A stretch of DNA of 64,000 bases, from the NCBI GenBank assembly GCA_963665525.1, contig OY762280.1, positions 3,948,084-4,012,083 of the forward strand, written 5' to 3'. Below are positions 42,753 through 55,417 of this stretch, in pieces (position 1 is the stretch's first letter; each line of letters begins with the position of its first letter). The position numbers and the translations under genes are program-made. Source of the stretch: Bacteroidales bacterium. Lineage in GTDB: Bacteria; Bacteroidota; Bacteroidia; Bacteroidales; UBA12077. The notes below the pieces were generated by a model. That model ran no database searches. It saw only the letters and a program-made list of their open reading frames with translations, and was not told the DNA's origin.

Positions 42753-43802
42753 TTATGTGGTTTTAATTAATTTATCGAAATACATTGCAAACGAGCGATA
42801 TAAAAAGTGAGTCCATTTACCAAACGGAACTATTATTACAGCCCACTGTACAAGAACTATTAAATGGAATAAATACATCCAAAGGTTGTTTTCGATAATA
42901 TTTAAATCGATAAAAACTCTTACAATAAATGCTGTTAATCCCATTAAGAATAGCCAGATTACAAAAAACCAGTCCGATGGTTGTGAGAACTTGTTTACTT
43001 CTCTGTTTTTTCTAATTCTTCCAATCATAAATATGAATGTAATTGCAAAAATTGCAATACTTTCAATATATCCTAAAAGAATAATAAACATGTTTTCTGT
43101 CCCAAACCAATCTAGAACAACGGTAGTAAAAAGTAAAGCCAGATAACCAAATACAAGTATCATATGCATTAGCCAACGTCTATAACTATCGTCGCAACCC
43201 AAAGTTCGCTTTTGAGTAAACATATGAATAAACAGTTCTTTGGCTGTTAACAGATAGGTTTTAAATTTTACTTTTTTGCCTGGTTTTAATATTACAAACC
43301 ACCACATTCGTGCTAAGTTAGGAATAAGTATAACTGCAAAAACAGCAGCAATAGCAAGCATTTCGAATGTATGTCCAAAGTGCATAATTGCTTCGGTATT
43401 AAAATTTAGTTTAAAACTAAACCAAATAACTGCGATAGCAGTAGCAATAAATGCAAACAGACTAAAAAATAATGATTTGTATAATAGACCCGATAAACCG
43501 GTCCAGTCGTATTTTGCAGTAAGCCATCTTCTTAACGACATCATTAATTCGCCAGGATTAGCTTCTCGCGGACAAGTACTTGCACAATCGCCGCAATAAT
43601 AACATAACCAAGGATCTAATGATGATGTAATTTTCTGATCTAACCCAAGAACACTGGCACGCACCATTTTTCGTGGGAAAGAATTGTCTTTATCAGATAA
43701 GCTGCATACAGCAGTACAATTCCCGCAATTATAACACGCATTAAAATCGTTGTTACCGTATTTGAAGATTTCTTTTGCAAATTTAGGATTTATTCTTGCC
43801 AT
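42753..43802 (-). CDS. QmoC-like subunit: HdrC-type 2x[4Fe-4S] domain fused to a 6-TM cytochrome-b-like (HdrE/NarI-type) membrane domain
   Basis: It has two ferredoxin-type motifs (CYNCGNCTAVC and CYYCGDCASTCP). About six hydrophobic helices follow, carrying candidate haem-ligand His residues (HFGH, MHMIL, FHLIV, WTHF). Confidence 0.8.
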   Translation of the reverse strand: MARINPKFAKEIFKYGNNDFNACYNCGNCTAVCSLSDKDNSFPRKMVRASVLGLDQKITSSLDPWLCYYCGDCASTCPREANPGELMMSLRRWLTAKYDWTGLSGLLYKSLFFSLFAFIATAIAVIWFSFKLNFNTEAIMHFGHTFEMLAIAAVFAVILIPNLARMWWFVILKPGKKVKFKTYLLTAKELFIHMFTQKRTLGCDDSYRRWLMHMILVFGYLALLFTTVVLDWFGTENMFIILLGYIESIAIFAITFIFMIGRIRKNREVNKFSQPSDWFFVIWLFLMGLTAFIVRVFIDLNIIENNLWMYLFHLIVLVQWAVIIVPFGKWTHFLYRSFAMYFDKLIKTT

Positions 43803-43807
43803 ATGAT

Positions 43808-44086
43808 TTACTTTTTCAATTTGTAAAAATAGTATTCATCCATATCATCAATTTCCCCGGTTTCAATACTTCCGTATTTTTGCAAAGTCATTAAATGATA
43901 GGTGACTATATCAAAAGGAATACCTGTTTCTTTAGCAATTTGAGGAATGGTTTTATCTTCCGCTTCGAGAGCTTTCAGGATTTGTTTTTTTATCCTGTTA
44001 AACTCTTTCATTTTTTCTTTTACTTCATCGGAAACTTTCCTCGTTTTCTTAATAATGTCTATTGTTTTTTCCATAATATCTTGCAT
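43808..44086 (-). CDS. Small winged-helix DNA-binding-like protein (Cys-free)
   Basis: 92 aa. The pattern RIKKQILKALEAEDKTIPQIAKETGIPFDIVTYHLMTLQKYGSIE looks like an ArsR/MarR-type wHTH. The gene lies 2 nt and 5 nt from its neighbours inside the operon. Confidence 0.55.
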   Translation of the reverse strand: MQDIMEKTIDIIKKTRKVSDEVKEKMKEFNRIKKQILKALEAEDKTIPQIAKETGIPFDIVTYHLMTLQKYGSIETGEIDDMDEYYFYKLKK

Positions 44087-44088
44087 TA

Positions 44089-46023
44089 TTAATCAATTAA
44101 AGCTTCAATCATACTTTCCATTTCTTTGTCTGTGTATCCAATTAAGTCAATTGCATTTTCAGGACAAACAGGTAAGCACATTCCGCATCCTTTACATAAT
44201 GATTTATTTACAACAGCAACCTCTTTACCATCGGTTGTAGTTTTTGAAATAGCATCGTACGGACAAGCGTTAGAGCAGTTATCACACCACGAACATTTAT
44301 CGTTATGAATAACGGCCATGGTTGGTTCAAGTTCAATTTCGCCTAAGCTAACCAAAGAGTTTGCTTTAGATGCAGCCGATAGTGCCGATTTTACCGATTC
44401 GGTAATATTTAAAGGAGCCTGACAAGCACCTGAAATTAATACTCCATCGATAACGGTTTCTACAGGACGTAGCTTAGGATGTATTTCGTTAAAGAATTTA
44501 TCTCTACCAACAGGAACTTTAAGTAAGTTAACAATGCCTTCGTATTCTCTAGGAACCATTCCGGTTACTAAAACAACTAAATCAGCATTAATTTCTACTT
44601 CTTCGTTGTCGGTTAAAATATCTTTAATTTTAACTATAGTTTCGTTGCCAACATATTGAACTTCCGGAGGAGAATCTTCGAAAGATTGTAAGAAAATATC
44701 GCCAGCTTCGGATGCTTGATGATAAAGTTTCTCTTGCTTTCCGTAAGTTCTTATTCCACGGTTAAAATGGAAGTTATTAATGTTTGGATATTTTTCTTTA
44801 ACAAGAATCGCGGTATGAATTGCTGATGTACAGCAATAACGCGAGCAATATTTATTAGGCCCATCAACCTGACGACTACCAACACAATAGATGTAAGCTA
44901 TATTTTTAACTTCTTGATGATTGTATAATAATTTATCATTATTAAGTTCAATTAATCGCTTAAATTGCTGAAGTGTAATTACATTACTTACCTCATGGTA
45001 TCCAAATTCGCCTTTTTCAGGTTCATAAGGGTTAAATCCGGTACAAAGCTGAATAGCTCCAACAGTAATTTCTGTTTCGGTTTCAGTTTGTTCAAGATCA
45101 ATATCATCGCATATGGCCACACATTCGCCACATTTAGTACAAGCTTTATAATCAATTGCAGGAATTTCAGGAAACTCACTACAGTAGTTTTTAAAAATAG
45201 CTTTACGTTTTGTGATGTTAAAATTGAAATCGTCATCAACCTCAACAGGGCATACTTCAATAGCTTTTTGGAACTTCTCTTTATCAAGTTTGCAATCGGG
45301 TTTAATATAGCGTGGAATAGTTTTTAATTTAAGACTATATTCTCCAACACTACCTTTTTTCTCAGCAATTTCGGTTCCGGTATAAAGCGTAATTTTTGGA
45401 TGAGAAATAATTTCATTGTATAAACGAGATACTACTTCTTGTCCGGTTTCATTAGTTGTAAACAATACGTTCCATTGAGAGGTACGACCACCAACAAAAT
45501 GTTCGCGCTCAATTAAATGAACAGTCGTTCCCATTTCGGCAAGTTCCAAAGCAGCACGCATTCCTGCAATACCAGCACCAACAACAGCAATGGCATTTTG
45601 CGATGGAATTTTAACAGGAGTAAGTTCTTTTGAATATTTTACTCTTTCAATTCCTCCCTGAACTAATTTTATGGCCTTTTCGGTTGCCATTGGGGCATTA
45701 TCGGAATGTGCCCAGGAGCCTTGTTCACGGATATTAACCTGAACGTAATTGTAAGGATTTAACCCGGCGCGTATCGCTACATTTCTAAATGTAAACAAGT
45801 GTAATTTTGGAGAACAAGATGCAACAACTATAGCATCCAAACTTTGTTCTTTGATATCGTTAGCAATTTCTTGTTGTGTGGAATCGGCACAGGCAAACAT
45901 GGTTGTTTTTGCCAGTGTAACTCCTTCAACTTTTGCGGCAGCTTCTTTTACTTTTTCAACATCTACATAGTCGGAAATATTCGAGCCGCACATGCATACA
46001 TATACTCCAATTTTATTTTTCAT
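44089..46023 (-). CDS. HdrA-like FAD/FeS oxidoreductase (QmoB-like but lacking the MvhD domain)
   Basis: It has an N-terminal CMCG motif, the dinucleotide fold VVGAGIAGMRAALELAE, the HdrA signature CVGSRQ...YCSRYCC and a C-terminal 2x4Fe-4S (CSWCDNCSNACP, CKGCGMCLPVCP). It overlaps the upstream gene by 11 nt. Confidence 0.85.
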   Translation of the reverse strand: MKNKIGVYVCMCGSNISDYVDVEKVKEAAAKVEGVTLAKTTMFACADSTQQEIANDIKEQSLDAIVVASCSPKLHLFTFRNVAIRAGLNPYNYVQVNIREQGSWAHSDNAPMATEKAIKLVQGGIERVKYSKELTPVKIPSQNAIAVVGAGIAGMRAALELAEMGTTVHLIEREHFVGGRTSQWNVLFTTNETGQEVVSRLYNEIISHPKITLYTGTEIAEKKGSVGEYSLKLKTIPRYIKPDCKLDKEKFQKAIEVCPVEVDDDFNFNITKRKAIFKNYCSEFPEIPAIDYKACTKCGECVAICDDIDLEQTETETEITVGAIQLCTGFNPYEPEKGEFGYHEVSNVITLQQFKRLIELNNDKLLYNHQEVKNIAYIYCVGSRQVDGPNKYCSRYCCTSAIHTAILVKEKYPNINNFHFNRGIRTYGKQEKLYHQASEAGDIFLQSFEDSPPEVQYVGNETIVKIKDILTDNEEVEINADLVVLVTGMVPREYEGIVNLLKVPVGRDKFFNEIHPKLRPVETVIDGVLISGACQAPLNITESVKSALSAASKANSLVSLGEIELEPTMAVIHNDKCSWCDNCSNACPYDAISKTTTDGKEVAVVNKSLCKGCGMCLPVCPENAIDLIGYTDKEMESMIEALID

Positions 46024-47311
46024 GAGTACCTCCTCTCAAGTAGCCTGCAGTTTCTGAGGAAGCTGCTCCGGCCGATAATATTGAATCTGGGATATCCATT
46101 GGCCCTGATGCTGTTCCTGCTACATAAACCCCATCAATATTGGTTTGTGCAGGGTTGGCAAGTAAATCTCTTTGTTGAACATAATTAAATTGATCTAACT
46201 CAAGATTGTTGTTAAACATTGATTTAACACCATCGTTGGCTAAAATACCAGTCGATAAAACAACCATATCGTGATTCGCTTCTTTAACAGTTCCACTTTC
46301 AATATCCTCGTATCTTAACTTAAGGTCTCCATCTTCAATTTCTTCTATTTTACCAATCTTACCTTTAATAAAGCTTACACCCATATCTTTTGCTTGTTGG
46401 TAAAACTCGTTAAATCCTTTACCAAACGACCGTATGTGTAAGTAATAAATTGTGATATCGGCCATAGGTAATGCTCCCATTAAAAGCTGGGCTTGCTTAA
46501 TTGAATACATACAGCAAACTTGTGAACATATTGGATTTCCAACAGTTTCGTCGCGCGAACCAGCACATAATACATAAGCAATATTGTCGGGCATTTTACC
46601 ATCTTTAGGTCTTAGAACAGTATTGTATGGACGTGTTGGAACTAGCTGACGTTCCATTTGCATGGCTGTAAGTACATTTTTGAATTTTCCAAAACCGTAT
46701 CTTGGAATATTTTCTGCATCGAATAGTTTATATCCGGTTGCAATAATTACCGATTTTGCCTGAATAGCTATGTCTTGCTTTTCTTGAGTAAAATCGATAC
46801 AGTTTGCAGGGCAGGCTTTTTCACATGCTCCGCATAAGCTACAGTTTTCAATATCTATTGCAGCAACCCTGGGATTGGCAATACTAAAAGGTACATAAAC
46901 AGCTTTACGGCCAACTAAATCCCATTGATATTGGTCTTTTACCACTACAGGGCATTTGTCTTCGCAAATCTGGCATCCTGTGCATGATTCTTCATCAACA
47001 TAGCGTGGATACTTGGTTAAGGTAGCGCGAAAATCAAATTCAGACTTTTTATCAATATTACTTACCTGGCTGTTGGTATAAATAGTTATATTTGGATGTC
47101 TTGCTGTTTCGGATACTTTAGGTGTTGTAATACATGCAGAACAATCTAATGTTGGAAAAACCTTACTTAAGTGGATCATTTTACCACCCAGGGATAAGTC
47201 TTTTTCAACAATAATGACTTTATAACCTTGGTTTGCAAGGTTAAGAGCTGCTTCTTCTCCAGAAATTCCTCCACCAATAACAAGAACATCGTATTCTTCT
47301 GATTTTGTCAT
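46013..47311 (-). CDS. HdrA-like FAD/FeS oxidoreductase (QmoA-like)
   Basis: It has VLVIGGGISGEEAAL, FPTLDCSACITTPK and CAGSRDE...CSQVCCMY, matching HdrA signatures, plus two inserted ferredoxin motifs (CTGCQICEDKCP, CSLCGACEKACP). Confidence 0.9.
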   Translation of the reverse strand: MTKSEEYDVLVIGGGISGEEAALNLANQGYKVIIVEKDLSLGGKMIHLSKVFPTLDCSACITTPKVSETARHPNITIYTNSQVSNIDKKSEFDFRATLTKYPRYVDEESCTGCQICEDKCPVVVKDQYQWDLVGRKAVYVPFSIANPRVAAIDIENCSLCGACEKACPANCIDFTQEKQDIAIQAKSVIIATGYKLFDAENIPRYGFGKFKNVLTAMQMERQLVPTRPYNTVLRPKDGKMPDNIAYVLCAGSRDETVGNPICSQVCCMYSIKQAQLLMGALPMADITIYYLHIRSFGKGFNEFYQQAKDMGVSFIKGKIGKIEEIEDGDLKLRYEDIESGTVKEANHDMVVLSTGILANDGVKSMFNNNLELDQFNYVQQRDLLANPAQTNIDGVYVAGTASGPMDIPDSILSAGAASSETAGYLRGGTHEK

Positions 47312-47327
47312 ATTGAGTAATTTTTAG

Positions 47328-47729
47328 TTAATTCTCCGAAGCTTTAGATAATTGCTCATGAAATGTTTTCATGTGCTTTACAAAAGCTTCTGCACAAACG
47401 GAACATATAGCAGCCATTTTTAATCGGGCAGGATCCATATTTTTTTCTTTCATGATAGCATGAGTCGCTTGCACTATTTTTGATGTTTTTTCAGAACAAG
47501 TATCGCTATAAGGACAGTCGGTTCCGTCAGCAGCAATAAAAACACCATCGAATCCTTTTTCGAAAGCATGTAAAATCCATTGTGGTTTTACCGAGCTAGA
47601 ACAAGGAACATTAACAGTATAAACTGTTGCAGGATAATGTTTTTTAAGGAGCCCCGCCATATCGATCGCGGGGTCCGAAATTTTCTCAGTTGAAAAAACC
47701 AGAATCTTTGGATTCTTTAATTTTTCCAT
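47328..47729 (-). CDS. MvhD/FlpD-like iron-sulfur protein (hydrogenase delta-subunit family)
   Basis: 133 aa. The layout ILVFST...VPCSS...FDGVFIAADGTDCPYSDTC...AICSVCAEAF is typical of MvhD-type [2Fe-2S] proteins that partner HdrA. Confidence 0.8.
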   Translation of the reverse strand: MEKLKNPKILVFSTEKISDPAIDMAGLLKKHYPATVYTVNVPCSSSVKPQWILHAFEKGFDGVFIAADGTDCPYSDTCSEKTSKIVQATHAIMKEKNMDPARLKMAAICSVCAEAFVKHMKTFHEQLSKASEN

Positions 47730-47732
47730 CGT

Positions 47733-47984
47733 TTATCCTTTCTTCATGTAAATTTTGAAGTATCCTGACTCTTCTACTGTACCTAAGTAGTCGTGGCCTT
47801 TTTTAGCAGCCCACTTAGGGATATCTTTTTTAGTTCCTTCGTCGGCAGAAAGAACTTCCATAATTTGACCTGAAGTTATTTCGCCAATTGCTTTTTTAGC
47901 AGCTAAAAGTGGTCCTGGACATGCTGTTCCTCTTGCGTCGACTGATTTGTCAACATTTAATGCTTGTAATTCTTCTGTTGTCAT
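47733..47984 (-). CDS. TusA-family sulfurtransferase (second copy)
   Basis: 83 aa with the CPxP active-site motif in VDARGTACPGPLLAAKKAI. Confidence 0.9.
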   Translation of the reverse strand: MTTEELQALNVDKSVDARGTACPGPLLAAKKAIGEITSGQIMEVLSADEGTKKDIPKWAAKKGHDYLGTVEESGYFKIYMKKG

Positions 47985-48004: not shown

Positions 48005-48418
48005 TTAAATAAATAAATTAACGTCTGTTTCTTGAATAGACTCAATGTATTCTCCAATTCCACAAATGTCATCAACCACATCAATGAAATCTTCGATTTT
48101 TTCTCCACCGGCAATTTTACCTGCTAAACTGCAGATATGGATTTTTACTTCGGTCATTTCTTTTGCCATTTCGAAAAACTCAATCCACGATGGTGTTGAT
48201 AAGCTTTCGAGAGCAGCTTTAAATTCGTCGGGTGTTTGAACATCTTCGCTCATATTTGATATATCGGCAGCTTTACTTTTTAAGAATGCATGACCTGCAT
48301 TTACCAGAACAAATAAATCTACTTCCATATCGTCGGCAGCAGCACCACTTAAAATAACGCCAACACTTGTTAATTTATCGATGCTTGATGTGCTCAAACC
48401 TATTGTCATTTTTGCCAT
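48005..48418 (-). CDS. DsrE/DsrF-like sulfur-relay family protein
   Basis: 137 aa with an alpha/beta pattern (VGVILSGAAADD...DLFVLVNAGHAF...KIHICSLAG) typical of the DsrE_2/COG2210-type relatives of DsrE. The candidate active Cys is in HICS. Confidence 0.75.
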   Translation of the reverse strand: MAKMTIGLSTSSIDKLTSVGVILSGAAADDMEVDLFVLVNAGHAFLKSKAADISNMSEDVQTPDEFKAALESLSTPSWIEFFEMAKEMTEVKIHICSLAGKIAGGEKIEDFIDVVDDICGIGEYIESIQETDVNLFI

Positions 48419-48443: not shown

Positions 48444-48947
48444 TTAACCTCCACAGCCTCCGCTCGATTCTTCTTTTTTAGGTTCTGCAACAGGTGCAGC
48501 TTCACCCATTCCTTGTTCAACTAATTCAGGATAAGTTGCTTCCCAATCGAACCAGCTAAAATCAAGCAAATAACAATCGGAATATTTTAATAATTCCAGA
48601 GATTGAACAGCTAATGCACCGCTACCCATTTCGTTACCAATTACTAAAGTTTTTATTCTACGATTTGATATTTTACCCGAGAATTCCAGTAATCCGCGAG
48701 GAATATGAATTGATCCCGGAATGTGGCCAAGTATAAAATCATAATCTTCGCGACAATCAACAATTTGAATCTCAGTGTGATTATCAATTAGATTTTTTAA
48801 TTCTTCCATGCCCAATGTTTTGATTTCTGCTTTTGCAGCAGCTATCATATCATCTACATTTTCATAAACTGTATTATCTTTCTGAACACAGCTTGATAAT
48901 AAGATGATTGACAATAAGGTCGGAAAAATGAATTTTATAAATCTCAT
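48444..48947 (-). CDS. Rhodanese-domain lipoprotein without active-site Cys, ending in GGCGG
   Basis: It has the lipobox LLSSC and a rhodanese core (IVDCREDYDFILGHIPGSIHIPRG). The active-site loop reads LVIGNEMGSGALA, with no Cys. A Pro/Glu/Ala linker follows, then the C-terminal SSGGCGG and a stop. Confidence 0.8.
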   Translation of the reverse strand: MRFIKFIFPTLLSIILLSSCVQKDNTVYENVDDMIAAAKAEIKTLGMEELKNLIDNHTEIQIVDCREDYDFILGHIPGSIHIPRGLLEFSGKISNRRIKTLVIGNEMGSGALAVQSLELLKYSDCYLLDFSWFDWEATYPELVEQGMGEAAPVAEPKKEESSGGCGG

Positions 48948-48958
48948 AATTACTTATT

Positions 48959-49765
48959 TTATAATTTCCATTCGTTGTATGCTCCGTCGTAAACTTTTAC
49001 GTTAGGATACTCAAGAACTGAAGTTAATGCAAGATATACTATCCCGGCTCTTACGCTGGTTGCACAGTAAAGAATAATTTCTTTGTCTTTGGTAATACCT
49101 GCACCATTAAATAATGCTTGTAAATCTTCTTTTGATTTAAGTTTACCGCCATCGGCTAAAACATTTTTATACTCTAAGTGCTTAGCACCTTCGATGTATC
49201 CTTCTGCCCATTCTGTATCGTCTCTAACATCAACAAGAATAGCCGACTTTAATTTAGATTTTACATAAGCTTTATCGGCAAAGATTTTAGCATTTACTTT
49301 AGGAGTAAATGTTACAGCAGCTTTTTTTGTTGCAGCATTTGTAACTGGACCTCTTGCGGTTCTCCATGCTTGCATATGACCATCCATAACTTTCACATCG
49401 TTGAATCCTAAATATTTTAGAATCCAGTATAAACGGCCTGCACCTTTATTTGAACCTGTATCGTAAATGATGATTTTTTTAGCTGGATCAATTCCTTTTT
49501 CTCCTAAGATAGTAGCTAGTTCAGCTGGAGATTTAAGAATTCCTTTAGGATCAGTTGTGCTTGCTAAGTCGTTAATGTTCACATTAACCGCATTTCTGAT
49601 ATGCACTTTTGCATAATCGGCTGGAGTTCTAGTAGATACAATAACAGCATCTTTGCTATTCACTAATTTCTTAGCTTCGGCAGCAGAAATTAAATCCTGA
49701 GCAAAAGAAAGATTTGCGAATATAGCTACTAATAAAAGACTAAATAATATGTTTTTTAATTTCAT
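48959..49765 (-). CDS. Secreted two-domain rhodanese (thiosulfate sulfurtransferase type)
   Basis: It has a signal peptide (LSFA|QD). The N-domain loop IYDTGSNKGAGR is inactive (Asp in place of Cys). The C-domain loop LYCATSVRAG is active. Confidence 0.9.
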   Translation of the reverse strand: MKLKNILFSLLLVAIFANLSFAQDLISAAEAKKLVNSKDAVIVSTRTPADYAKVHIRNAVNVNINDLASTTDPKGILKSPAELATILGEKGIDPAKKIIIYDTGSNKGAGRLYWILKYLGFNDVKVMDGHMQAWRTARGPVTNAATKKAAVTFTPKVNAKIFADKAYVKSKLKSAILVDVRDDTEWAEGYIEGAKHLEYKNVLADGGKLKSKEDLQALFNGAGITKDKEIILYCATSVRAGIVYLALTSVLEYPNVKVYDGAYNEWKL

Positions 49766-49776
49766 AATTTCGTTTA

Positions 49777-50823
49777 TTAAAATTTAACCTGAACTTGCAA
49801 TACAACCTGATCGTTAGGAATTTCTAAAGCTTGTTCTGCTTTGTATCTGTAATTTAATTGAACACGTGTCCAATCGTTTAAGAAATAGTTTAATCCAAAT
49901 GTCATGATTGTTTCAGAGTTGTCGTCGATATCTACGTCAGAATCAAAGCATTCAAATTTGAATACTGGTTGTAAATTCCATCTTGTAGTATACATTGCCT
50001 GTGCAAAATAACCGCTACGAGTTACACCACCAGTATGATATTCGATTGGTGTACCATCGCAACCACCACCAGTTGTGTAATCGCCAGTATCATCGGCCCA
50101 AAGATATTCTGCCTGAAATAAGAAATTTCCGGTTTTTATTTGTACTTCGCCACCTAAACGAGTTTTCTCGTTATCTTCTTCGGCACCTGTTTTACCATAG
50201 GCAAAACTACCGCCTACCTGAAGAAAATCAACAGGAGCAAATGTTAATCTTCCTTTTATACTTTTAGCTTTGTTTTCATCTTCGAAACCTTTTTCATAAT
50301 CATTCATTAAAGCTAAATAGTAGTTGATTTTAGAGTCGAGAAGACTACCAAAAACCATAGCTCCCATATCGCGTTGCGGACCTGCTAGTTCGTCAACAGC
50401 TTTTGAACGATAGATAGTATGAAGAGACTGACAAGGTGTGTTTTGCTCTAAACTTAATGGCGATTTAAACTGACCAAAGCTTATTTTGGCAAAATCGTAT
50501 CGTGAATAAGTCACAAATGCATCTAGTAACCATGGCGATCCTGATTTGAATCGAGAGAAATCAACCATGAAGAAATAACTTACATCGTAAGGAATATTTC
50601 CAACTGCAGCTATTCTTGCACGGTTAAAGGTAAAGCTGTTAGCATCTTTACCATCGGTAGTTTGATAATATTCCCACTGTGGCTGAATGTAACCTTTAAT
50701 GCTTACTCCTTCGTCGGAAGAAGCTTCCATACATCCTTGTGCAGAAACAAGCTGTGTAGATGTTAATACCACAAGAATTGAGAGGCTAAATATTGATAAT
50801 ATCTTTTTAATCATTTTTTTCAT
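49777..50823 (-). CDS. Outer-membrane porin, phosphate-selective porin O/P-like family
   Basis: It has a signal peptide (LVSA|QG), an N-terminal FTFNRARIAAVGNI block like the porin O/P family, a beta-strand periodicity and the C-terminal ...VLQVQVKF. Confidence 0.75.
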   Translation of the reverse strand: MKKMIKKILSIFSLSILVVLTSTQLVSAQGCMEASSDEGVSIKGYIQPQWEYYQTTDGKDANSFTFNRARIAAVGNIPYDVSYFFMVDFSRFKSGSPWLLDAFVTYSRYDFAKISFGQFKSPLSLEQNTPCQSLHTIYRSKAVDELAGPQRDMGAMVFGSLLDSKINYYLALMNDYEKGFEDENKAKSIKGRLTFAPVDFLQVGGSFAYGKTGAEEDNEKTRLGGEVQIKTGNFLFQAEYLWADDTGDYTTGGGCDGTPIEYHTGGVTRSGYFAQAMYTTRWNLQPVFKFECFDSDVDIDDNSETIMTFGLNYFLNDWTRVQLNYRYKAEQALEIPNDQVVLQVQVKF

Positions 50824-50832
50824 ATTTTTAAT

Positions 50833-50866
50833 TAAAAAATAAGCTAAGTAGCTTTTGCTACCCAGC
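50833..50866 (-). terminator. Intra-operon terminator/attenuator-like hairpin (minus strand)
   Basis: The minus-strand RNA reads gcugggtagc-aaaa-gcuacuuagc, a 10-bp stem with two G-U pairs, followed by uuauuuuuu. On the plus strand the same positions would be A-C mismatches. Confidence 0.45.
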
Positions 50867-50877
50867 TTAAATATTTT

Positions 50878-51843
50878 TTATTCTAATGGTAAGTCAGTAA
50901 TTGCTGTAGCATCCCACTTGTGTGAAGTAAGATTATCATAAATCATACTATTAACACCATTTTTTAAACTGTGTGGAGTATAACCTAATACATATAAATA
51001 AGCTGTTACCATTGAAGAAGTTTGTCCTGTCCAGCAATATGTTACCACATCTTTTGATGGATCAAGATACATATATTCTCCACCAGCTAATGTTAAAGGC
51101 TTAATTCGGTATGCACCAGAAATGTGTCCGTAAGTTGTAACATCAGCCGCATCCCAGAAATTATTTACATAGTAACTTCCTGGACTAGCTAATACGTCAG
51201 ACCCAGCAACACCTTGGAAACCAGCTGTTAATAATGCAGTAACTCTTGCGGCAAGAATTTCAGCACCTGTTCCTGTAGTTGTAATATCAGGATCGTCGAA
51301 TTGAGTAGTTTGAGTACTTACAGCACCAGGAGCAGCAATCCAGTTAGGGCTATCAATTGTATTACATGAACCACTCCATGAGTCAAGGCTGGTATGCCAT
51401 CCACTCATTCCCCATTTTAATACTTTGGCATCAGTATAACCGCTTAAACGTAAAGCAACGGTTCCATGTCCTGCTCCTTGTCCGCTATAACAAACAACAA
51501 TAATTGGTTTTCCGGCAGCATTACCTGCTTCGGTAACAATATTACCTAAAGTTGAATTTACTGCTCCAGGAATATGACTTGTGTTATATGCGTCAGAAGA
51601 TCTGATATCAATTATATAATAAGAGCTTAGGTTATCTTTTATAGCATCAGCAGTAGTGATCCAGTCAGTTAGTATATTATCCAAATCCAAATCGTTAGCT
51701 ACTAAGTACTCTTTTAGAATCTGAAATTCAGTGTCGGTTTGACGGTCTGGAGTTGCATCGTCATCACTGTCGTCTTTACAAGATGTTAAAACAAATGCAG
51801 GAATAATTAAAATTAATAATGCGTACTTTAAAAACTTTTTCAT
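50878..51843 (-). CDS. Lipoprotein with two rhodanese-like domains and an acidic post-Cys tract
   Basis: The lipobox VLTSC is followed by KDDSDDDATPD. Two rhodanese modules carry the loops VVCYSGQGAGHG and TYCWTGQTSS. I chose the ATG at 51843, because the longer ORF overlaps the upstream gene. Confidence 0.8.
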   Translation of the reverse strand: MKKFLKYALLILIIPAFVLTSCKDDSDDDATPDRQTDTEFQILKEYLVANDLDLDNILTDWITTADAIKDNLSSYYIIDIRSSDAYNTSHIPGAVNSTLGNIVTEAGNAAGKPIIVVCYSGQGAGHGTVALRLSGYTDAKVLKWGMSGWHTSLDSWSGSCNTIDSPNWIAAPGAVSTQTTQFDDPDITTTGTGAEILAARVTALLTAGFQGVAGSDVLASPGSYYVNNFWDAADVTTYGHISGAYRIKPLTLAGGEYMYLDPSKDVVTYCWTGQTSSMVTAYLYVLGYTPHSLKNGVNSMIYDNLTSHKWDATAITDLPLE

Positions 51844-51878: not shown

Positions 51879-52355
51879 TTATCCTCCACAACCACCTGAC
51901 TCAGGTTGCTTAGTAATAGCAGGGGCTCCGCCTGAAAATTTCATCCAACCACCTTTAAGGTTAGATATATTTTCGAATCCCAATTTTTGAAGTGATTTTG
52001 CAGCAAGAGCACCACGGCCACCTACTTTGCAATACACAATAATTTTATCAGTTTTTAGAGGGGTGTACATGAATTGCTCTTCCCAGAAATATTCATCAAG
52101 AATAAGGAATTCTAATTCACCACGAGGAATAGAGAATGATCCCGGAATATTTCCTGCTTCGTATTCGGAAGGTTGTCTTACATCTATTAAAAGGAATTCT
52201 TCTCCATTATCAATCATCGATTTTAAAGTATCGACAGATATTTCATTTATTTCGGTTGCAACAACACTAGCTAATTCTTTACCATCTTCATATATGGCAG
52301 TACAAGAAGAAAACAAGAAGATGAGCAGTGCTGCGATTGATATATTAAATTTCAT
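51879..52355 (-). CDS. Rhodanese lipoprotein with intact active-site Cys, ending in GGCGG
   Basis: It has the lipobox LFSSC, the core LIDVRQPSEYEAGNIPGSFSIPRG and the active loop IVYCKVGGRGALA. The C-terminus reads ...APAITKQPESGGCGG followed by TAA. Confidence 0.85.
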   Translation of the reverse strand: MKFNISIAALLIFLFSSCTAIYEDGKELASVVATEINEISVDTLKSMIDNGEEFLLIDVRQPSEYEAGNIPGSFSIPRGELEFLILDEYFWEEQFMYTPLKTDKIIVYCKVGGRGALAAKSLQKLGFENISNLKGGWMKFSGGAPAITKQPESGGCGG

Positions 52356-52381: not shown

Positions 52382-53596
52382 TTAAAAAGCACTGAATTTT
52401 CCTGTGCGTTCATTCCACTTAACAAATACATACCATATTAGTATTACTACAAGAACTAGAATAAAAGCTCCAGCATAGCCTAAATAGTCAGGCAAATAAT
52501 TTTTGAACTTCATTGTATGAGGGAGTGCATCAACGATTGCAGGAACAATATATTTTTTAGAAATAGGGGATACAAGTAAGAATCCTAATGCAGCCATCCA
52601 TAATTTAACCTGCCCTTCGCCTACACGCCAAAGTGTTCCAACGGCACATCCTCCGGCAACAGTCATTCCTAATCCAAAAATAAATCCTCCTAAAAGACCA
52701 CGTAACCAGAAATGTCCAAAAACCCAGGTCATTTCACGAGCACGAATAGTAGCATCGCCTGCACCAATACCAAAATATTTAATGGCAGTGAAACCTATTA
52801 ATGTAATAACTAAACCGGCCATTACTCCAACAGAACCATCGCTTTCGCCTGTCATAAAAGGATCGCGGAATGCTTTAACGATACAAAAGCGTGATCGTTG
52901 GCAAATGAGTCCCATTAATAATCCTGAAATTATAAACCAGGCTAATACGCCATTGGTTCCGGCAACTCTATATGCAAGAACAAAAGTTCCGATAGAAACG
53001 ATCCATCCTAACCAGATTTGCCATTTTCCTGTTTTTTCTGATGCAGCAAGGAAAGTAAAACTTTTACCTGTGCTAAAAGAAGGGAACTTTTCCATTTCCC
53101 AAAGCAAGTATTTAAGAGCAATTATAGTACCAGCAAAAAGTCCTATAGTAAAAATAATTGCTCCACCTGATAATGCTGGGACACCCGAGAAAAATGAACC
53201 AATTGTACAACCTAATCCCAGAGTTGCTCCAATAGCCATTAATGCACCTCCAATAAATCCTTTTATTAATTCTCCTTTAGGAGGTATTCGTAAGGCAAAT
53301 TCTTTTGAGAAGAGAGCTCCGGCAAATGATCCTAAAACCAGTATCAGGCAAAGCATACCATAAAGACTGGTACTTGTAGGTGCAGCATTTTCAAAAGCAG
53401 AAATACCCAGGAGCTTAAAAATATTCTCACCCCAGTTATTAATACCACCACTAGCACCCCAAGGACTTTTTACGGTAAATAGTAAAATGTTTAGTAGTCC
53501 CAGAGTAACACCACCAACCCATACTGGCCAGTGTTTGGCGAAAAAAATATTAAATAATTCGCGAAGTATTCCTGGCTCTTTTTGTTGATCAGCCAT
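52382..53596 (-). CDS. YeeE/YedE-family sulfur-compound (thiosulfate-type) transporter
   Basis: 404 aa and polytopic. It has the repeated Cys-containing motifs LGLGCTIGSFFSG, GLICQRSRFC and VAGGCAVGTLWRVGEG that are characteristic of YeeE/YedE. Confidence 0.9.
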   Translation of the reverse strand: MADQQKEPGILRELFNIFFAKHWPVWVGGVTLGLLNILLFTVKSPWGASGGINNWGENIFKLLGISAFENAAPTSTSLYGMLCLILVLGSFAGALFSKEFALRIPPKGELIKGFIGGALMAIGATLGLGCTIGSFFSGVPALSGGAIIFTIGLFAGTIIALKYLLWEMEKFPSFSTGKSFTFLAASEKTGKWQIWLGWIVSIGTFVLAYRVAGTNGVLAWFIISGLLMGLICQRSRFCIVKAFRDPFMTGESDGSVGVMAGLVITLIGFTAIKYFGIGAGDATIRAREMTWVFGHFWLRGLLGGFIFGLGMTVAGGCAVGTLWRVGEGQVKLWMAALGFLLVSPISKKYIVPAIVDALPHTMKFKNYLPDYLGYAGAFILVLVVILIWYVFVKWNERTGKFSAF

Positions 53597-53605
53597 TTTT
53601 ACCTC

Positions 53606-53836
53606 CTACTTTTTTTGTATTAGAAACCTGAAAACACCATTTTCAACTTCACCTTCTTCAAGTAAAGCGTTTCCTGTTTTTTCACACCATTTTGGTAGGT
53701 CTGATTTTGTTCCAGGATCGGTTCCTAACATTTCAAGCACATCTCCAGAACCTAATCCTTTAATTGCTTTTGCCAGTTTCATCATTGGCATAGGACATGA
53801 AAGCCCTTTTACGTCTAATGTTTCTTTAATTTCCAT
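53606..53836 (-). CDS. TusA-family sulfurtransferase (first copy, paired with YeeE)
   Basis: 76 aa with the motif LDVKGLSCPMPMMKLAKAI (CPxP). It lies 9 nt upstream of the YeeE gene. Confidence 0.9.
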   Translation of the reverse strand: MEIKETLDVKGLSCPMPMMKLAKAIKGLGSGDVLEMLGTDPGTKSDLPKWCEKTGNALLEEGEVENGVFRFLIQKK

Positions 53837-53954: not shown

Positions 53955-53968
53955 CTGATTTAGATCAA
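53955..53968. promoter_or_regulatory. Candidate Crp/FNR-type operator (cTGAT-N4-ATCAA)
   Basis: CTGATTTAGATCAA matches 9 of 10 positions of TTGAT-N4-ATCAA. It lies in the divergent region between the sulfur operon (ATG at 53836) and the Crp/Fnr gene (ATG at 54026). Confidence 0.4.
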
Positions 53969-54025: not shown

Positions 54026-54721
54026 ATGGAAAAGATATCTGCTTTAAATAGTTGTACAGTAAGCAATGCAAAATGTATTTGTTTTGATTTATTGACGCCA
54101 GAACAAAGAGAATTGATTGAAAAAAATTCGATTGATGTTCGATATAAGAAAGGTGAAGTAATTTGTAAACATGGTACTTTTGCTCCACATGTTATTCTAC
54201 TTAAAGAGGGCTTGGCAAAAATTTATTTAGAGGGTTTAAATGATTCCTTAATCTTAAAAATAATTACTTCGGGTAATTTAATTGGGTTAACTTCTGTTAT
54301 GGAAGATAATAATGTGTTTCATTATTCAGCATCGGCATATGTTGATTCTTCTGCCAGCTTAATAGATATCAATATCTTTAGAAAAATTCTTAAAGAAAAT
54401 GCCGAATTTGCAAATTCGGTAATAAATATTTTATGTGAAAATTCCTTACAAACTTTCGGAAGATTTTTCTGCTTAACACATAAACAACTATATGGTAGAA
54501 TGGCAGATATTATCTTATGTTTATCTGAAAGAATCTTTAAAGAAAAAAGTTTTGTTTTAAATCTTACAAGAAAAGAGCTGGCTGAATTAACAGGGATGTC
54601 AACGGAAAGCGTTATACGAATGCTTAAGAAATTTAAAGATGACGGAATAATAGAACTGCAAGGAAAGGAAGTCGTTATTTCAAATTATGATTTATTGCGT
54701 AAGATTAGCGAATATGGATAA
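54026..54721 (+). CDS. Crp/Fnr-family transcriptional regulator
   Basis: It has a cNMP-binding-like beta-barrel and a C-terminal HTH (TRKELAELTGMSTESVIRMLKKF). The N-terminus carries the Cys residues CTVSNAKCIC. Confidence 0.9.
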   Translation: MEKISALNSCTVSNAKCICFDLLTPEQRELIEKNSIDVRYKKGEVICKHGTFAPHVILLKEGLAKIYLEGLNDSLILKIITSGNLIGLTSVMEDNNVFHYSASAYVDSSASLIDINIFRKILKENAEFANSVINILCENSLQTFGRFFCLTHKQLYGRMADIILCLSERIFKEKSFVLNLTRKELAELTGMSTESVIRMLKKFKDDGIIELQGKEVVISNYDLLRKISEYG

Positions 54722-54724
54722 TAT

Positions 54725-55417
54725 CTATCCATTTTTACTTATCTCTTTTAGTAGTTCCAGGTTTAAGATCTTTATTTTTTTACCCTTTAGCTGAATAATT
54801 TTTTCATCATTAAATTCTGATAATATTCGGGCAACACTTTCAATGGCCATTCCGGAAAGCTCGGCTAAATCTTTTCGATTAACATATGAAAATACATCAA
54901 TTGATTTAAACTCTTCTCTGTTTAAGTATAATAATACATTAGCTAATTTTCCATTTAATTGTTTTAAACCAAGGTTTAAACATTTGGTTAACATAATATT
55001 GTAGTTTTTACAATACCAACTTGCTAATTCGCGAGAAAAATCGCAGCTCATAGAGATTAAGTCTTTAATGGCATTTTGATTAATTGCACATACTTTTGTT
55101 TCAGTAATTGCAGCTGCTGAGAAATAATAGGAATCGTCGCCGTATAAAGAGGTTAATCCAATAAAATCATGCGGTTTTAGTAGTTTGATGATAATATTTT
55201 TACCGGGACCTTCGATGTATACTTTTACTAATCCATTAAGAACATATAAAATATCAGATACACGTGTGCCTTCTTTAATTATTGTTTCTCCTTTGTTATA
55301 TGTAACATGGGTTTTGACTAGATTATTAAACTCATCAATTATTTCAATATCCTGGATAAAACATTCCGATTTTCTGTTGCAATCTGTACAGTTAGTTTTT
55401 ATTAAATATCTGTCCAT
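54725..55417 (-). CDS. Crp/Fnr-family transcriptional regulator (paralog, convergent)
   Basis: It has the same architecture, with the HTH NRKDLAELSGMAIESVARILSEF and the N-terminal Cys cluster CTDCNRKSEC. Confidence 0.9.
   Translation of the reverse strand: MDRYLIKTNCTDCNRKSECFIQDIEIIDEFNNLVKTHVTYNKGETIIKEGTRVSDILYVLNGLVKVYIEGPGKNIIIKLLKPHDFIGLTSLYGDDSYYFSAAAITETKVCAINQNAIKDLISMSCDFSRELASWYCKNYNIMLTKCLNLGLKQLNGKLANVLLYLNREEFKSIDVFSYVNRKDLAELSGMAIESVARILSEFNDEKIIQLKGKKIKILNLELLKEISKNG

Follow-up and report, generated by a model that had tools for sequence, protein, structure and literature searches.

In QmoABC of type I (for example in Desulfovibrio; PMC3333476), one short and one long HdrA-like flavoprotein are accompanied by an MvhD module and by a membrane subunit in which an HdrC-like Fe-S part is joined to a cytochrome b with two haems; a link to menaquinone is predicted. 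Confurcation with a low-potential partner has been proposed for the QmoABC of sulfate-reducing and green sulfur bacteria. Neukirchen et al. (2023, PMC10504309) defined a ‘type II’ Qmo as nearer to hdrA than to bacterial qmoAB and noted it in organisms that lack Dsr and Apr. In the methanogen MvhADG-HdrABC complex (PDB 5ODC), MvhD is a separate polypeptide and HdrA a homodimer, accompanied by HdrB and a hydrogenase. DsrMK(JOP)/DsrC and HdrDE couple quinol or methanophenazine to the cytoplasmic reduction of protein- or cofactor-bound S-S through a membrane cytochrome b and an Fe-S module; a CCG-domain subunit (DsrK, HdrD) is the catalyst, and both flavoproteins and a bifurcation module are missing. 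Sulfur oxidisers have sHdr-LbpA, a cytoplasmic Hdr-like complex served by a TusA/DsrE3/rhodanese relay and SoxT/YeeE transporters (PMC11094781, PMC11582611), and PMC11582611 presents the characterised YeeE and SoxT proteins as importers. Wolinella PsrABC with periplasmic Sud and Geobacter ExtH/ExtI capture chalcogen outside the cytoplasm with exported rhodanese-type proteins and a dedicated porin.

Here we describe a conserved, uncharacterised gene set that joins DsrE/TusA to a membrane-anchored Hdr/Qmo-like complex, found in a 64-kb window (the whole stretch of DNA analysed) of a Bacteroidales bacterium; our literature search found no description of a TusA-linked membrane Hdr/Qmo-like gene set. 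The cluster has the subunit inventory of type I QmoABC, but without aprBA/sat linkage, with MvhD as a separate gene carrying a different cysteine set, with an extra winged-helix gene and with TusA as the invariant neighbour. Its QmoC-like subunit has its closest Apr-linked relative found (37% identity) in Desulfofundulus thermobenzoicus (L087; sat-aprBA-qmoA-qmoB-hdrD-qmoC), where, unlike in the window, QmoB keeps a fused classical-type MvhD domain without CxxC, HdrD (CCG) and aprBA/sat are adjacent, and TusA, DsrE and the winged-helix gene are missing. As in MvhADG-HdrABC, the long flavoprotein is HdrA from end to end, the short one matches the HdrA core, MvhD is separate, and the HdrA cluster motifs and Cys197 logic are all kept; unlike there, HdrB and hydrogenase are missing, HdrC forms one protein with a membrane cytochrome b, a putative heterodimer replaces the homodimer and the classical cluster cysteines are gone from the MvhD-like protein. 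The ties to TusA, a DsrE-type protein, rhodaneses and a YeeE-family transporter recall sHdr-LbpA, but sHdr has HdrB1/B2 (CCG), HdrC1/C2, a single small sHdrA and lipoate-binding proteins and no membrane anchor or MvhD, whereas the window has neither HdrB nor LbpA. The membrane cytochrome b and Fe-S module is shared with DsrMK and HdrDE, although the carrier of DsrMK is DsrC rather than TusA. Reduction in Wolinella is periplasmic and by a molybdoenzyme, whereas in the window the sulfur apparently enters the cytoplasm and is handled there; the likeness to Geobacter ExtH/ExtI is weak.

Gene content and cofactor motifs

The genes of the cluster and its flank, in order of transcription of the cluster, are:

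54725..55417, minus strand: second Crp/Fnr-family regulator (Pfam; NCBIfam)
54026..54721, plus strand: Crp/Fnr-family regulator (Pfam cNMP_binding and HTH_Crp_2)
53606..53836, minus strand: TusA family, 76 aa (Pfam TusA; NCBIfam TusA 59 bits, YedF 33 bits)
52382..53596, minus strand: YeeE/YedE-family (Sulf_transp) inner-membrane sulfur transporter, 404 aa (Pfam PF04143)
51879..52355, minus strand: exported rhodanese lipoprotein, 158 aa (Pfam Rhodanese; lipobox ‘LFSSC’)
50878..51843, minus strand: exported rhodanese-domain lipoprotein, 321 aa as called (Pfam Rhodanese; signal/lipobox ‘FVLTSC’)
49777..50823, minus strand: outer-membrane porin, 348 aa, weakly ExtI-like (Pfam Porin_O_P and Porin_4)
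48959..49765, minus strand: exported tandem-rhodanese protein, 268 aa, weakly ExtH/SseA-like (Pfam Rhodanese twice, 134.8 bits)
48444..48947, minus strand: exported rhodanese-domain lipoprotein, 167 aa (Pfam Rhodanese; lipobox ‘LLSSC’)
48005..48418, minus strand: DsrE-like sulfurtransferase, 137 aa (Pfam DrsE_2, 34 bits)
47733..47984, minus strand: TusA sulfur carrier, 83 aa (Pfam TusA, 79.9 bits)
47328..47729, minus strand: MvhD/FlpD-family protein, 133 aa (Pfam FlpD/MvhD, 104.5 bits)
46013..47311, minus strand: short HdrA-type flavoprotein, 432 aa (HdrA2 model positions 140-564)
44089..46023, minus strand: long HdrA-type flavoprotein, 644 aa (HdrA end to end, 5odc_A residues 5-645)
43808..44086, minus strand: small winged-helix protein (wHTH), 88-92 aa (weak ArsR/HTH_5 matches)
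42753..43802, minus strand: QmoC-like membrane anchor, 349 aa (NCBIfam qmoC, full length, 159.5 bits)

The five ORFs from MvhD-like to QmoC-like were recovered where the first-pass annotation had placed them, as were the DsrE-like and TusA genes as direct upstream neighbours and the 11-nt overlap of the two HdrA ORFs (46013-46023). The QmoC-like assignment also stands on its full-length alignment, although the score is below the curated cut-off of 300 bits. This subunit fuses an HdrC-like 2x[4Fe-4S] domain to a six-helix NarI/HdrE-like cytochrome b and has eight invariant cysteines in two 4-Cys motifs; His213, His313 and His332 are kept in 94-99% of 84 superfamily members (His141 in 57%), and the conserved histidines are located on transmembrane helices. 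Its AF2 model (pLDDT 82.9) gives Foldseek matches to HdrC and NarI. QmoC homology, the 4-Cys motifs, the histidines and the predicted HdrC and NarI folds thus support a membrane anchor with a quinone link.

The short HdrA covers PDB HdrA residues of about 146-566, with an FAD domain, a complete 2x[4Fe-4S] inserted ferredoxin domain and the HdrA-type CxGxRDx7CSxxCC cluster. It carries Cys57 and Cys60, the latter aligning with Cys197 of methanogen HdrA (5odc_A). The long HdrA has an N-terminal Cys domain, an FAD domain, a partial inserted ferredoxin domain, the HdrA-type cluster and a C-terminal 2x[4Fe-4S] ferredoxin domain; no Cys197 motif was found in it and, as first annotated, it has no MvhD part. 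The pair looks like an asymmetric heterodimer, and such complementarity in heterodimeric HdrA has been described (PMC9012536). The short subunit groups with methanogen HdrA (42% identity, against 36% to the Apr-linked QmoA of Desulfofundulus), and a split QmoB was therefore rejected. The initial description of a ‘split’ canonical Qmo has to be given up: the long subunit is a full-length HdrA and, since a separate MvhD is native to full-length HdrA, MvhD as its own gene is no splitting.

The MvhD-like protein is a separate FlpD/MvhD-family gene, as annotated, but not a classical MvhD: the CCxxC and GGC motifs of solved MvhD/VhuD are gone, and a CxxC pair is present instead. This pair, C109xxC112 (‘AICxVC’ motif), occurs in all TusA-linked homologues and in no others examined, and in one homologue (L089) it provides the only two cysteines. 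We propose it as a dithiol/disulfide site and candidate catalytic site; three further cysteines, conserved in most homologues, may form an unusual Fe-S site.

The wHTH ORF spans 92 aa (88 aa from Met5, where gene callers start), has zero cysteines and an invariant acidic wing DDMDE, and is modelled with an ArsR/SmtB fold (AF2 pLDDT 89.6; Foldseek matches SmtB, CzrA and HlyU). The first annotation regarded it as an insert, but it is a cluster component that is conserved across phyla and closely packed with its neighbours, occurring in 81/81 loci and in the four non-Bacteroidales clusters.

Conservation, sulfur carriers and uptake block

The core order TusA-MvhD-HdrA-HdrA-wHTH-QmoC is kept on the same strand in each of the 66 Bacteroidales loci whose flank is long enough and in four of five sampled non-Bacteroidales loci (L084, from Anaerolineae of the Chloroflexota, L086, L089 and L090). 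Six genes in the same order in every related locus with enough flank are not due to chance and, since the order is kept although core subunits of the window and the non-Bacteroidales clusters are only 31-55% identical, the linkage is ancient and maintained by selection. Close relatives of the QmoC-like protein are encoded in at least 595 species-level genomes; the carriers identified to date are fermentative members of the Bacteroidales and Anaerolineae. In L084 and L090, an ArsR-type regulator with a Cys pair comes before the cluster.

TusA is the invariant first gene of the core and the only invariant non-redox neighbour of the redox genes. Its Cys22, in DARGxACPGP, is invariant across 66 orthologues, and the window protein is 53-55% identical to TusA of L084 and L086. 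The DsrE-like gene lies at most about 770 nt upstream of TusA in 44/66 Bacteroidales loci and is present in 4/4 TusA-linked clusters sampled outside the order; its Cys96 is invariant in 31 orthologues.

That no apr, sat or dsr gene lies within 64 kb, as claimed at first, was borne out by Pfam (context for 17-64 kb, scan for 0-17 kb) and, for apr/sat, by tblastn with Desulfofundulus Sat, AprA and AprB. Apr/sat are also absent from 83 related loci (1.36 Mb in total), and no genes of sulfur-to-sulfite oxidation (HdrB/CCG, LbpA, Dsr, Apr) were found in the window or these loci. Given the lack of a local Apr, the invariant TusA and the usually adjacent DsrE-like gene, TusA/DsrE-bound sulfur is the best candidate partner of the redox complex. 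This keeps one part of the earlier proposal of a protein persulfide or di/trisulfide substrate; a di-/trisulfide reductase of the DsrK/HdrB kind is not encoded here, because no CCG/HdrB-type catalytic domain was found near the core.

Upstream of the core, the window has an 8-gene uptake block with the porin, four exported rhodaneses, the YeeE-type transporter and the second TusA. This 76-aa TusA is the first gene of the extended cluster, has the CP motif ‘GLSCPMP’ and is the likely cytoplasmic partner of the transporter, which matches NCBIfam YedE/FdhT (136 bits) and TsuA (95 bits) below the cut-offs. All four rhodaneses have export signals (signal peptide or lipobox by sequence reading); those of 158 and 167 aa end in ‘ESGGCGG’ and ‘SSGGCGG’, and the ORF of the 321-aa lipoprotein reaches 51891. 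The matches of the porin to ExtI (46.6 bits) and of the tandem-rhodanese protein to ExtH/SseA-type models are also below cut-off. Only about a dozen related loci have the block, most core loci lacking it, and it is hence no guide to the direction of the reaction across the family. The Crp/Fnr protein at 54026..54721, divergent from the cluster and with NCBIfam matches below cut-off, is a possible regulator of it; the second Crp/Fnr protein also lies upstream.

Proposed reaction and alternative readings

Building on the observed gene content, cofactor motifs, conserved synteny and cysteine patterns, we tentatively propose that the core is a menaquinone- and probably ferredoxin-coupled flavin enzyme reducing TusA-carried sulfane sulfur. 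The six genes would encode one membrane-bound redox complex, in which the QmoC-like subunit would exchange electrons with the menaquinone pool via two b-type haems and two [4Fe-4S] clusters and feed an asymmetric heterodimer of the two HdrA-type flavoproteins, the short subunit contributing the Cys197-equivalent ligand. By analogy with MvhADG-HdrABC, the heterodimer would split or merge electron pairs, with menaquinone as the high-potential and ferredoxin as the low-potential partner; the third branch, elsewhere a hydrogenase, formate dehydrogenase or APS reductase, would be the sulfur carriers. Sulfane sulfur would pass from the DsrE-like protein to Cys22 of TusA and the CxxC pair of the MvhD-like protein and leave as H2S, so that menaquinol, reduced ferredoxin and 2 TusA-S-SH would yield menaquinone, oxidised ferredoxin, 2 TusA-SH and 2 H2S. 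In the window, sulfur would be supplied by the porin, the four exported rhodaneses, the YeeE-type importer and the second TusA. The S0/HS- couple lies at about -270 mV. With menaquinone at -75 mV (PMC3333476) and ferredoxin at about -450 to -500 mV (PMC9304861), their mean is near -270 mV, close to that couple, and confurcation would thus make the otherwise uphill transfer from menaquinol to sulfur feasible, the same energetic argument that Ramos et al. made for QmoABC. Homology to bifurcating HdrA is the one argument for ferredoxin coupling; sHdrA is an HdrA homologue without a need to bifurcate. The reductive direction is suggested by the porin, exported rhodaneses and YeeE-type transporter of the window, which look like hardware for importing sulfane sulfur that H2S would not need, and by the missing sulfur-to-sulfite oxidation genes.

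The same complex might run in the opposite direction, which we consider rather unlikely: electrons from sulfide, leaving a persulfide on the CxxC protein or TusA, would be split downhill to menaquinone and uphill to ferredoxin, sulfide would be detoxified with a gain of menaquinol and reduced ferredoxin, and sulfane sulfur would pass via DsrE and the rhodaneses to be exported or stored. The bifurcating-HdrA architecture with a quinone-linked high-potential branch would suit this, the midpoint-potential argument is equally valid, most core loci lack the uptake block and carriers inhabit highly sulfidic water and sediment. Yet the window porin, exported rhodaneses and transporter resemble import hardware, the characterised YeeE and SoxT proteins being described as importers; strict fermenters require a sink for menaquinol rather than an extra source, and no export or sulfur-globule genes were seen. 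Labilibaculum, Ancylomarina and Lentimicrobiales carriers have been discussed as sulfide-tolerant, not sulfur-reducing, and a role in mitigating the toxicity of sulfide has been suggested for the ‘Hdr system’ of such strains (PMC11129491). Selenium rather than sulfur, such as selenite or Se(0) uptake and reduction, is very unlikely: the best NCBIfam matches of the transporter (YedE/FdhT, selenium metabolism), the porin and one rhodanese (ExtI and ExtH, selenite/tellurite reduction operon) and the YedF match of the 76-aa TusA point that way, but the scores are far below curated cut-offs (136 vs 350, 46.6 vs 150 and 64.6 vs 200 bits), the core mostly occurs without the uptake block, DsrE and TusA are established sulfur carriers and Pfam showed no selD or sel genes in the window.

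TusA proteins are multifunctional, and TusA/DsrE might not be the redox substrate at all but supply sulfur for cofactors or clusters, regulate or act as a chaperone, the module being of a ferredoxin/NADH:menaquinone or other type with its third partner encoded elsewhere. No recognised disulfide- or persulfide-reducing domain was found in the cluster (no CCG/HdrB, no Npsr-type Cys-FAD site), in keeping with this reading, and an Aminicenantes MAG, in which the neighbours of a related QmoC-like protein are a fused double HdrA, a classical MvhD and a [NiFe] hydrogenase and TusA is missing, illustrates that the scaffold can serve other partners. We nevertheless regard it as improbable: TusA is kept directly upstream of the MvhD-like gene across phyla at 31-55% identity of the other subunits, the MvhD-like cysteine pattern shifts exactly where TusA appears, the DsrE-like protein co-occurs and Cys-pair ArsR-type regulators precede two clusters. 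That the cluster is an ordinary Qmo, working in sulfate reduction or sulfite oxidation with an APS reductase from another part of the genome, can be nearly discounted. The QmoC-like identity to a true sat-aprBA-qmoAB-hdrD-qmoC cluster would fit it, but apr/sat are absent from the window and the 83 loci, and the named carriers are all from fermentative groups that are not known to reduce sulfate. With Apr-linked QmoA/B, the HdrA subunits share only 28-36% identity, figures that refer to Desulfofundulus Qmo only and not to type I QmoABC, and they are closer to methanogen HdrA; Qmo-type genes have also been recorded in genomes without Dsr or Apr (PMC10504309).

The recurrence of this gene set in hundreds of fermentative anaerobes without nearby sulfate-reduction genes points to overlooked sulfur handling. 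If reduction of TusA-carried sulfane sulfur is indeed its function, a fermenter could dispose of electrons in its cytoplasm by passing them to polysulfide, elemental sulfur or the sulfane atom of thiosulfate.

Gene content and subunits of the module

Fourteen closely spaced genes run from 53836 to 42753 on the minus strand of the window, which has a G+C content of ~32% and elsewhere encodes efflux pumps, peptidases, regulators, DnaG, a Znu transporter and similar functions. The first-pass annotation had reported an MvhD-like, two HdrA-like, a winged-helix (wHTH) and a QmoC-like gene in this region, and their order, sizes, coordinates and domains are confirmed here.

Genes of the core module and the adjoining DsrE-like gene
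48005-48418, minus strand: DsrE_2-family protein, adjoining TusA upstream
47733-47984, minus strand: TusA, directly 5' of the MvhD-like gene
47328-47729, minus strand: FlpD/MvhD-family protein, 133 aa (Pfam FlpD, 104.5 bits)
46013-47311, minus strand: short HdrA-like protein, 432 aa (HdrA2 model positions 140-564)
44089-46023, minus strand: long HdrA-like protein, 644 aa (HdrA2 model positions 1-640 of 777)
43808-44086, minus strand: winged-helix ORF, 92 aa
42753-43802, minus strand: QmoC-like protein, 349 aa (full-length alignment to NCBIfam qmoC; N-terminus matches HdrC)

The two HdrA genes overlap by 11 nt, and the long protein covers all of the HdrA2 model except the MvhD domain. The reported absence of apr, sat and dsr from the 64 kb also stands: the Pfam context contains none of them, and tblastn queries from a genuine sulfate reducer, Desulfofundulus (Sat, AprA, AprB), matched nothing in the window or across 83 related loci, which together span 1.36 Mb.

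The 644-aa HdrA aligns end to end with methanogen HdrA (5odc_A residues 5-645, E = 6e-123) and has four conserved N-terminal cysteines, the FAD motif, a partial inserted ferredoxin domain, the HdrA-specific CxGSRx8CSxxCC cluster and two C-terminal 4-Cys motifs. The 432-aa HdrA corresponds approximately to HdrA residues 146-566, with a complete inserted ferredoxin domain (two clusters), and keeps the motif PTLDCSAC, the second cysteine of which aligns with HdrA Cys197; this motif is missing from the 644-aa protein. All motifs of electron-bifurcating HdrA are found, shared out over the pair so that the subunits complement each other. The N-terminal cluster of an HdrA protomer is completed by Cys197 from its partner protomer, and tandem HdrA genes that encode an N-terminal domain without Cys197 and Cys197 without an N-terminal domain have been interpreted as obligate asymmetric heterodimers (PMC9012536). 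Judged by its motifs, the window pair fits this pattern exactly.

A neighbour-joining tree built on 399 core columns places the short HdrA and its orthologues as sister to methanogen HdrA (42–48% identity), with the Apr-linked QmoA and QmoB of Desulfofundulus on a separate branch. Identity to methanogen HdrA is 42% for the short and 35% for the long subunit, compared with 36% (short HdrA to QmoA) and 28% (long HdrA to QmoB) for Desulfofundulus, the sole Apr-linked Qmo compared. The idea of a split canonical QmoB that has lost its MvhD domain is not borne out, given that the pair is nearer to methanogen HdrA than to these QmoA and QmoB proteins; tree placement and identities argue instead for an HdrA/MvhD-type pair on a QmoC-type anchor. 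The window has no CCG domain or HdrB, and an HdrD tblastn query matches in any locus only via its ferredoxin part.

The QmoC-like protein has the architecture of QmoC, in which an HdrC-like part with two [4Fe-4S] motifs (eight invariant cysteines) is fused to a cytochrome b of six predicted hydrophobic helices, itself predicted to be di-haem. Conservation among 84 proteins of the wider superfamily is 94–99% for His213, His313 and His332 and 57% for His141. His332 lies 19 positions after His313, the two being on transmembrane helix 6 and its extension, a spacing that resembles the ligation of two haems by one helix in NarI. In an AlphaFold (AF2) model (pLDDT 82.9), Foldseek matches the N-terminal part to HdrC and the membrane part to NarI, and the protein likely binds two haems. 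The PDB contains no Qmo structure. Against NCBIfam NF038018 (qmoC) the protein scores 159.5 bits, below the curated equivalog score of 300 bits, although this cut-off discriminates poorly, given that the Apr-linked Desulfofundulus QmoC fails it too (201 bits); no sampled representative reached it. In the related locus L001 (12222-13271) the protein differs by one residue (…DDSYSRWLMH…, compared with …DDSYRRWLMH… in the window), and the contig is otherwise identical.

Of all its parts, the MvhD-like protein sets the module furthest apart from its relatives. An N-terminal CCxxC (or its selenocysteine version), MCS and GGCHxGDC are common to solved MvhD and VhuD proteins. Despite its strong Pfam match, the window protein does not have this classical MvhD/FlpD cysteine set: together with all 67 Bacteroidales orthologues it is without the CCxxC and GGC cysteines, and two of the classical positions are retained in the window protein and none in its homologue from the metagenome contig L089. 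Invariant in Bacteroidales are Cys43, Cys72, Cys78, Cys109 and Cys112. Of these, the four clusters sampled outside Bacteroidales all retain just the AIC-x-V-C pair (Cys109/Cys112), and in L089 its equivalents are the sole cysteines. The pair is missing in the hydrogenase-linked MvhD of an Aminicenantes MAG, in the C-terminal domain of Desulfofundulus QmoB and in all solved MvhD/VhuD. Because the motif appears exactly where TusA appears, we infer that this CxxC is the leading candidate for the missing site of sulfur chemistry; the alignment suggests a position between a strand and a helix.

TusA (Pfam, 79.9 bits) carries the carrier motif D-x-R-G-x-x-C-P-x-P as DARGTACPGP, with Cys22 invariant in 66 orthologues, and its PDB relatives include Ta1170 and E. 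coli TusA. The wHTH gene, earlier regarded as an insert, proved to be a constant part of the module, present in 81 of 81 loci and always within a few bases of its neighbours; it overlaps qmoC by 4 nt in the Anaerolineae locus L084 and in the TusA-linked clusters L086 and L089. Its AF2 model (pLDDT 89.6) shows an ArsR/SmtB-like fold that lacks the C-terminal dimerisation helix (Foldseek: SmtB, CzrA, HlyU), and the protein has zero cysteines and an invariant acidic wing, DDMDE. A DsrD-like role was considered and rejected, as it finds no sequence support and the fold is ArsR/SmtB-like. The protein may be a regulator or a subunit.

Distribution and gene order

More than 120 database clusters are ≥67% identical to the QmoC-like protein, and every named one is from Bacteroidales (Tenuifilaceae, Prolixibacteraceae, Labilibaculum, Ancylomarina, Lentimicrobium, Mariniphaga, Mangrovibacterium). 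A scan of one genome per species found relatives in at least 595 genomes, the best 80 of which are all Bacteroidota except for one bin labelled Chlorobiota. With the window proteins as tblastn queries against these best 80 loci, TusA, MvhD-like, HdrA432, HdrA644, wHTH and QmoC occur in one order and orientation wherever the flank suffices, and 66 loci run from TusA through QmoC. A DsrE-like gene lies within ~770 nt 5' of TusA in 44 of these 66.

Beyond Bacteroidales, the next QmoC relatives are merely 36–42% identical (exhaustive search of 50%-identity representatives). A profile of these relatives retrieves mainly Anaerolineales/Chloroflexota proteins, plus others, and four of the five contexts sampled from this search have the TusA-linked core. 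The Desulfofundulus context was looked up separately, via the QmoC representative P0130.

Related loci outside Bacteroidales
L084, Anaerolineae: ArsR-TusA-FlpD-HdrA442-HdrA686-HTH90-QmoC-DsrE
L086, metagenome contig: DsrE-TusA-FlpD-447-680-104aa-QmoC
L089 and L090, metagenome contigs: same core, DsrE-like gene 3' of the core
L085, 4697-12424, Aminicenantes MAG (fifth sampled context): QmoC-like, 1091-aa fused double HdrA, classical MvhD, [NiFe] hydrogenase small and large subunits; without TusA
L087, 48-10149, Desulfofundulus thermobenzoicus: sat-DUF6955-aprB-aprA-qmoA-qmoB(+MvhD)-hdrD-qmoC

Orthologues outside Bacteroidales are 53–55% (TusA), 52% (short HdrA), 40–44% (long HdrA), 40% (QmoC), 36–41% (wHTH) and 31% (MvhD-like) identical to the window proteins. 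That the core order is kept despite subunit identities of 31–55% indicates an ancient and maintained linkage. As a conserved genetic unit the module is well supported; its function is inferred. The partner module varies, being a hydrogenase, APS reductase or, in the window, TusA/DsrE, which argues for a modular scaffold.

The Aminicenantes locus seems to encode an Hdr that is membrane-anchored and hydrogenase-linked but has no HdrB, a further uncharacterised version of the scaffold. The Gram-positive sulfate reducer D. thermobenzoicus has an HdrD-like CCG protein and QmoC together; Gram-positive sulfate reducers are usually described as being without qmoC. Cys/Met-metabolism PLP enzymes (PF01053) lie within a few kb of the TusA-linked cluster in L089 (1-1042) and L090 (12610-13821), whose genomes are unrelated, perhaps by coincidence or perhaps as a sign that sulfur assimilation is involved.

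The uptake block and candidate regulatory features

Upstream of the DsrE-like gene, the order in the 5' direction is a rhodanese lipoprotein, a tandem rhodanese with a signal peptide, a porin, two rhodanese lipoproteins, a YeeE/YedE-family transporter and a second TusA (TusA76). All four rhodaneses are predicted from their signals to be exported, and the block looks like a system for sulfane-sulfur capture outside the cell and import into the cytoplasm. It is found in only about a dozen loci, mostly those of the nearest relatives. The rhodanese lipoproteins at 51879-52355 (…ESGGCGG) and 48444-48947 (…SSGGCGG), both on the minus strand, share a glycine-flanked cysteine tail, SGGCGG, which suggests a flexible C-terminal Cys arm that might serve periplasmic sulfur hand-off. 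The 167-aa one of the two (48444-48947) appears to be without the usual active-site Cys loop (VIGNEMGSG). The best NCBIfam matches of the porin (49777-50823) and the tandem rhodanese (48959-49765) are, below threshold, ExtI and ExtH of the Geobacter selenite/tellurite reduction operon, and for the YeeE-family transporter (52382-53596) YedE/FdhT is a better match than TsuA.

Two Crp/Fnr-type regulators flank the block (54026-54721, plus strand; 54725-55417, minus strand). An FNR/CRP-like half-palindrome beside both of them, TTGATCTAAATCA (53956-53968, minus strand), ~120 nt 5' of the first gene, was rejected as chance-level; the FNR-type pattern occurs six times in the window against 2.2 expected and is not statistically enriched. 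A sigma-70 promoter scan gave fewer matches than in shuffled sequence and is uninformative for Bacteroidota. In the 54-nt gap between a rhodanese gene ending at 50878 and the porin gene is a 13-bp terminator-like hairpin with a T-run (50840-50869, minus strand), so that the 14 genes may form two transcription units; alternatively, the hairpin may be an attenuator. Directly 5' of TusA, L084 (3227-3511) and L090 (2199-2540) have an ArsR-type regulator with one N-terminal and one or two C-terminal cysteines (Cys16 and Cys86/89 in L084). By this cysteine arrangement they resemble persulfide-sensing SqrR/BigR/sHdrR-type repressors, which would fit induction by sulfane sulfur.

Relation to known systems and possible function

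Complexes of the Hdr and Qmo types have key roles in methanogenesis and in sulfate reduction; which electron partner Qmo uses is still under debate. The module has its scaffold in common with QmoABC and HdrABC-MvhD and its sulfur relay in common with sHdr. QmoABC likewise pairs a short HdrA-like protein (QmoA) with a long one (QmoB), but QmoB carries MvhD at its C-terminus, whereas in the window MvhD is a separate gene with another cysteine pattern, and the aprBA/sat association is found neither there nor in the 83 related loci. MvhADG-HdrABC uses HdrB (CCG, non-cubane clusters) as its disulfide-reducing site, which is missing in the window. Among defining features, the module is without Apr linkage, HdrB, classical MvhD and a score above the QmoC cut-off, the last being a weak test. 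Type II Qmo occurs with or without Dsr/Apr, and its qmoAB, in a clade with Ammonifex degensii and Vulcanisaeta moutnovskia proteins, is nearer to typical hdrA than to bacterial type I qmoAB (PMC10504309). The window pair is nearer to HdrA than to Apr-linked QmoA/B, with Desulfofundulus as the sole reference.

With sHdr (shdrC1B1AHC2B2 plus a lipoate-binding protein) the window has the accompanying TusA, DsrE and rhodaneses in common, but HdrB, HdrC1/C2 and LbpA are missing, and the module has a membrane anchor and two large HdrA proteins instead. The uptake block follows a logic similar to that of the SoxT/YeeE-TusA-DsrE relay known from the sHdr pathway (PMC11094781, PMC11582611), although the end point in the window has no HdrB or lipoate-binding protein. 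A full-text literature search yielded no paper on a Qmo/Hdr cluster with TusA linkage in Bacteroidales or Anaerolineae, nor on the CxxC MvhD, the conserved wHTH or the uptake block. In one sentence, a Black Sea cultivation study mentions for Labilibaculum, Ancylomarina and Lentimicrobiales strains an 'Hdr system, maybe sulfide detoxification' (PMC11129491).

By analogy with MvhADG-HdrABC, the HdrC-like branch would be the high-potential exit from the flavin, leading via two haems to menaquinone, the ferredoxin-domain and N-terminal-cluster branch would be the low-potential exit to ferredoxin, and the MvhD site would be the docking place of a mid-potential partner. The S0/HS- couple lies at ~-270 mV. 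The mean of menaquinone (-75 mV; PMC3333476) and ferredoxin (~-450 to -500 mV; PMC9304861) is near this value, which makes a sulfane/sulfide couple a thermodynamically natural third partner.

In the reductive direction, menaquinol and reduced ferredoxin would together reduce TusA-bound sulfane sulfur to H2S. We favour this direction, while holding it to be somewhat short of probable, because the window contains sulfane-sulfur import hardware, no sulfite-forming enzyme is nearby and fermenting hosts would profit from an electron sink. Its main rival is the reverse, in which sulfide oxidation drives the reduction of menaquinone and ferredoxin; the same potentials would serve it, and we consider it unlikely. 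That TusA, for all its conserved linkage, is not the substrate of the complex seems improbable to a similar degree. Selenium handling would draw on the sub-threshold ExtI/ExtH matches and on a transporter nearer to YedE/FdhT than to TsuA, and is very unlikely. Service to a distant APS reductase, the role of the otherwise similar QmoABC scaffold, is the least credible reading for a cluster with no Apr or Sat around it in any locus searched. Returning to the sulfur-carrier reading in its full form, the CxxC MvhD-like protein might act as catalytic module in a persulfide reductase (or sulfide dehydrogenase) of a new, HdrB-independent type that works by menaquinone/ferredoxin confurcation or bifurcation in a cytoplasmic respiration of TusA-bound sulfur; so specific a proposal is possible, though we hold it with considerable doubt.

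Here, an Hdr/Qmo scaffold is tied to a sulfur carrier rather than to APS reductase, without the catalytic HdrB, in very abundant fermentative anaerobes. If its proposed function is true, it would be a new intracellular route for reducing (or oxidising) zero-valent sulfur, and metagenomic 'qmo' or 'hdr' matches in non-sulfate-reducers would need rereading. Given that cultured carriers exist, the module is directly testable, and Labilibaculum euxinus and Ancylomarina longa would then offer a cultivable test system for quinone-coupled flavin-based confurcation, already proposed for Qmo (PMC3333476). Hundreds of Bacteroidales and Anaerolineae species from sediments, sulfidic waters and digesters carry the cluster; hence, if the CxxC reading is true, these 'plain fermenters' would form a large and hidden sink or source in the cycling of zero-valent sulfur.
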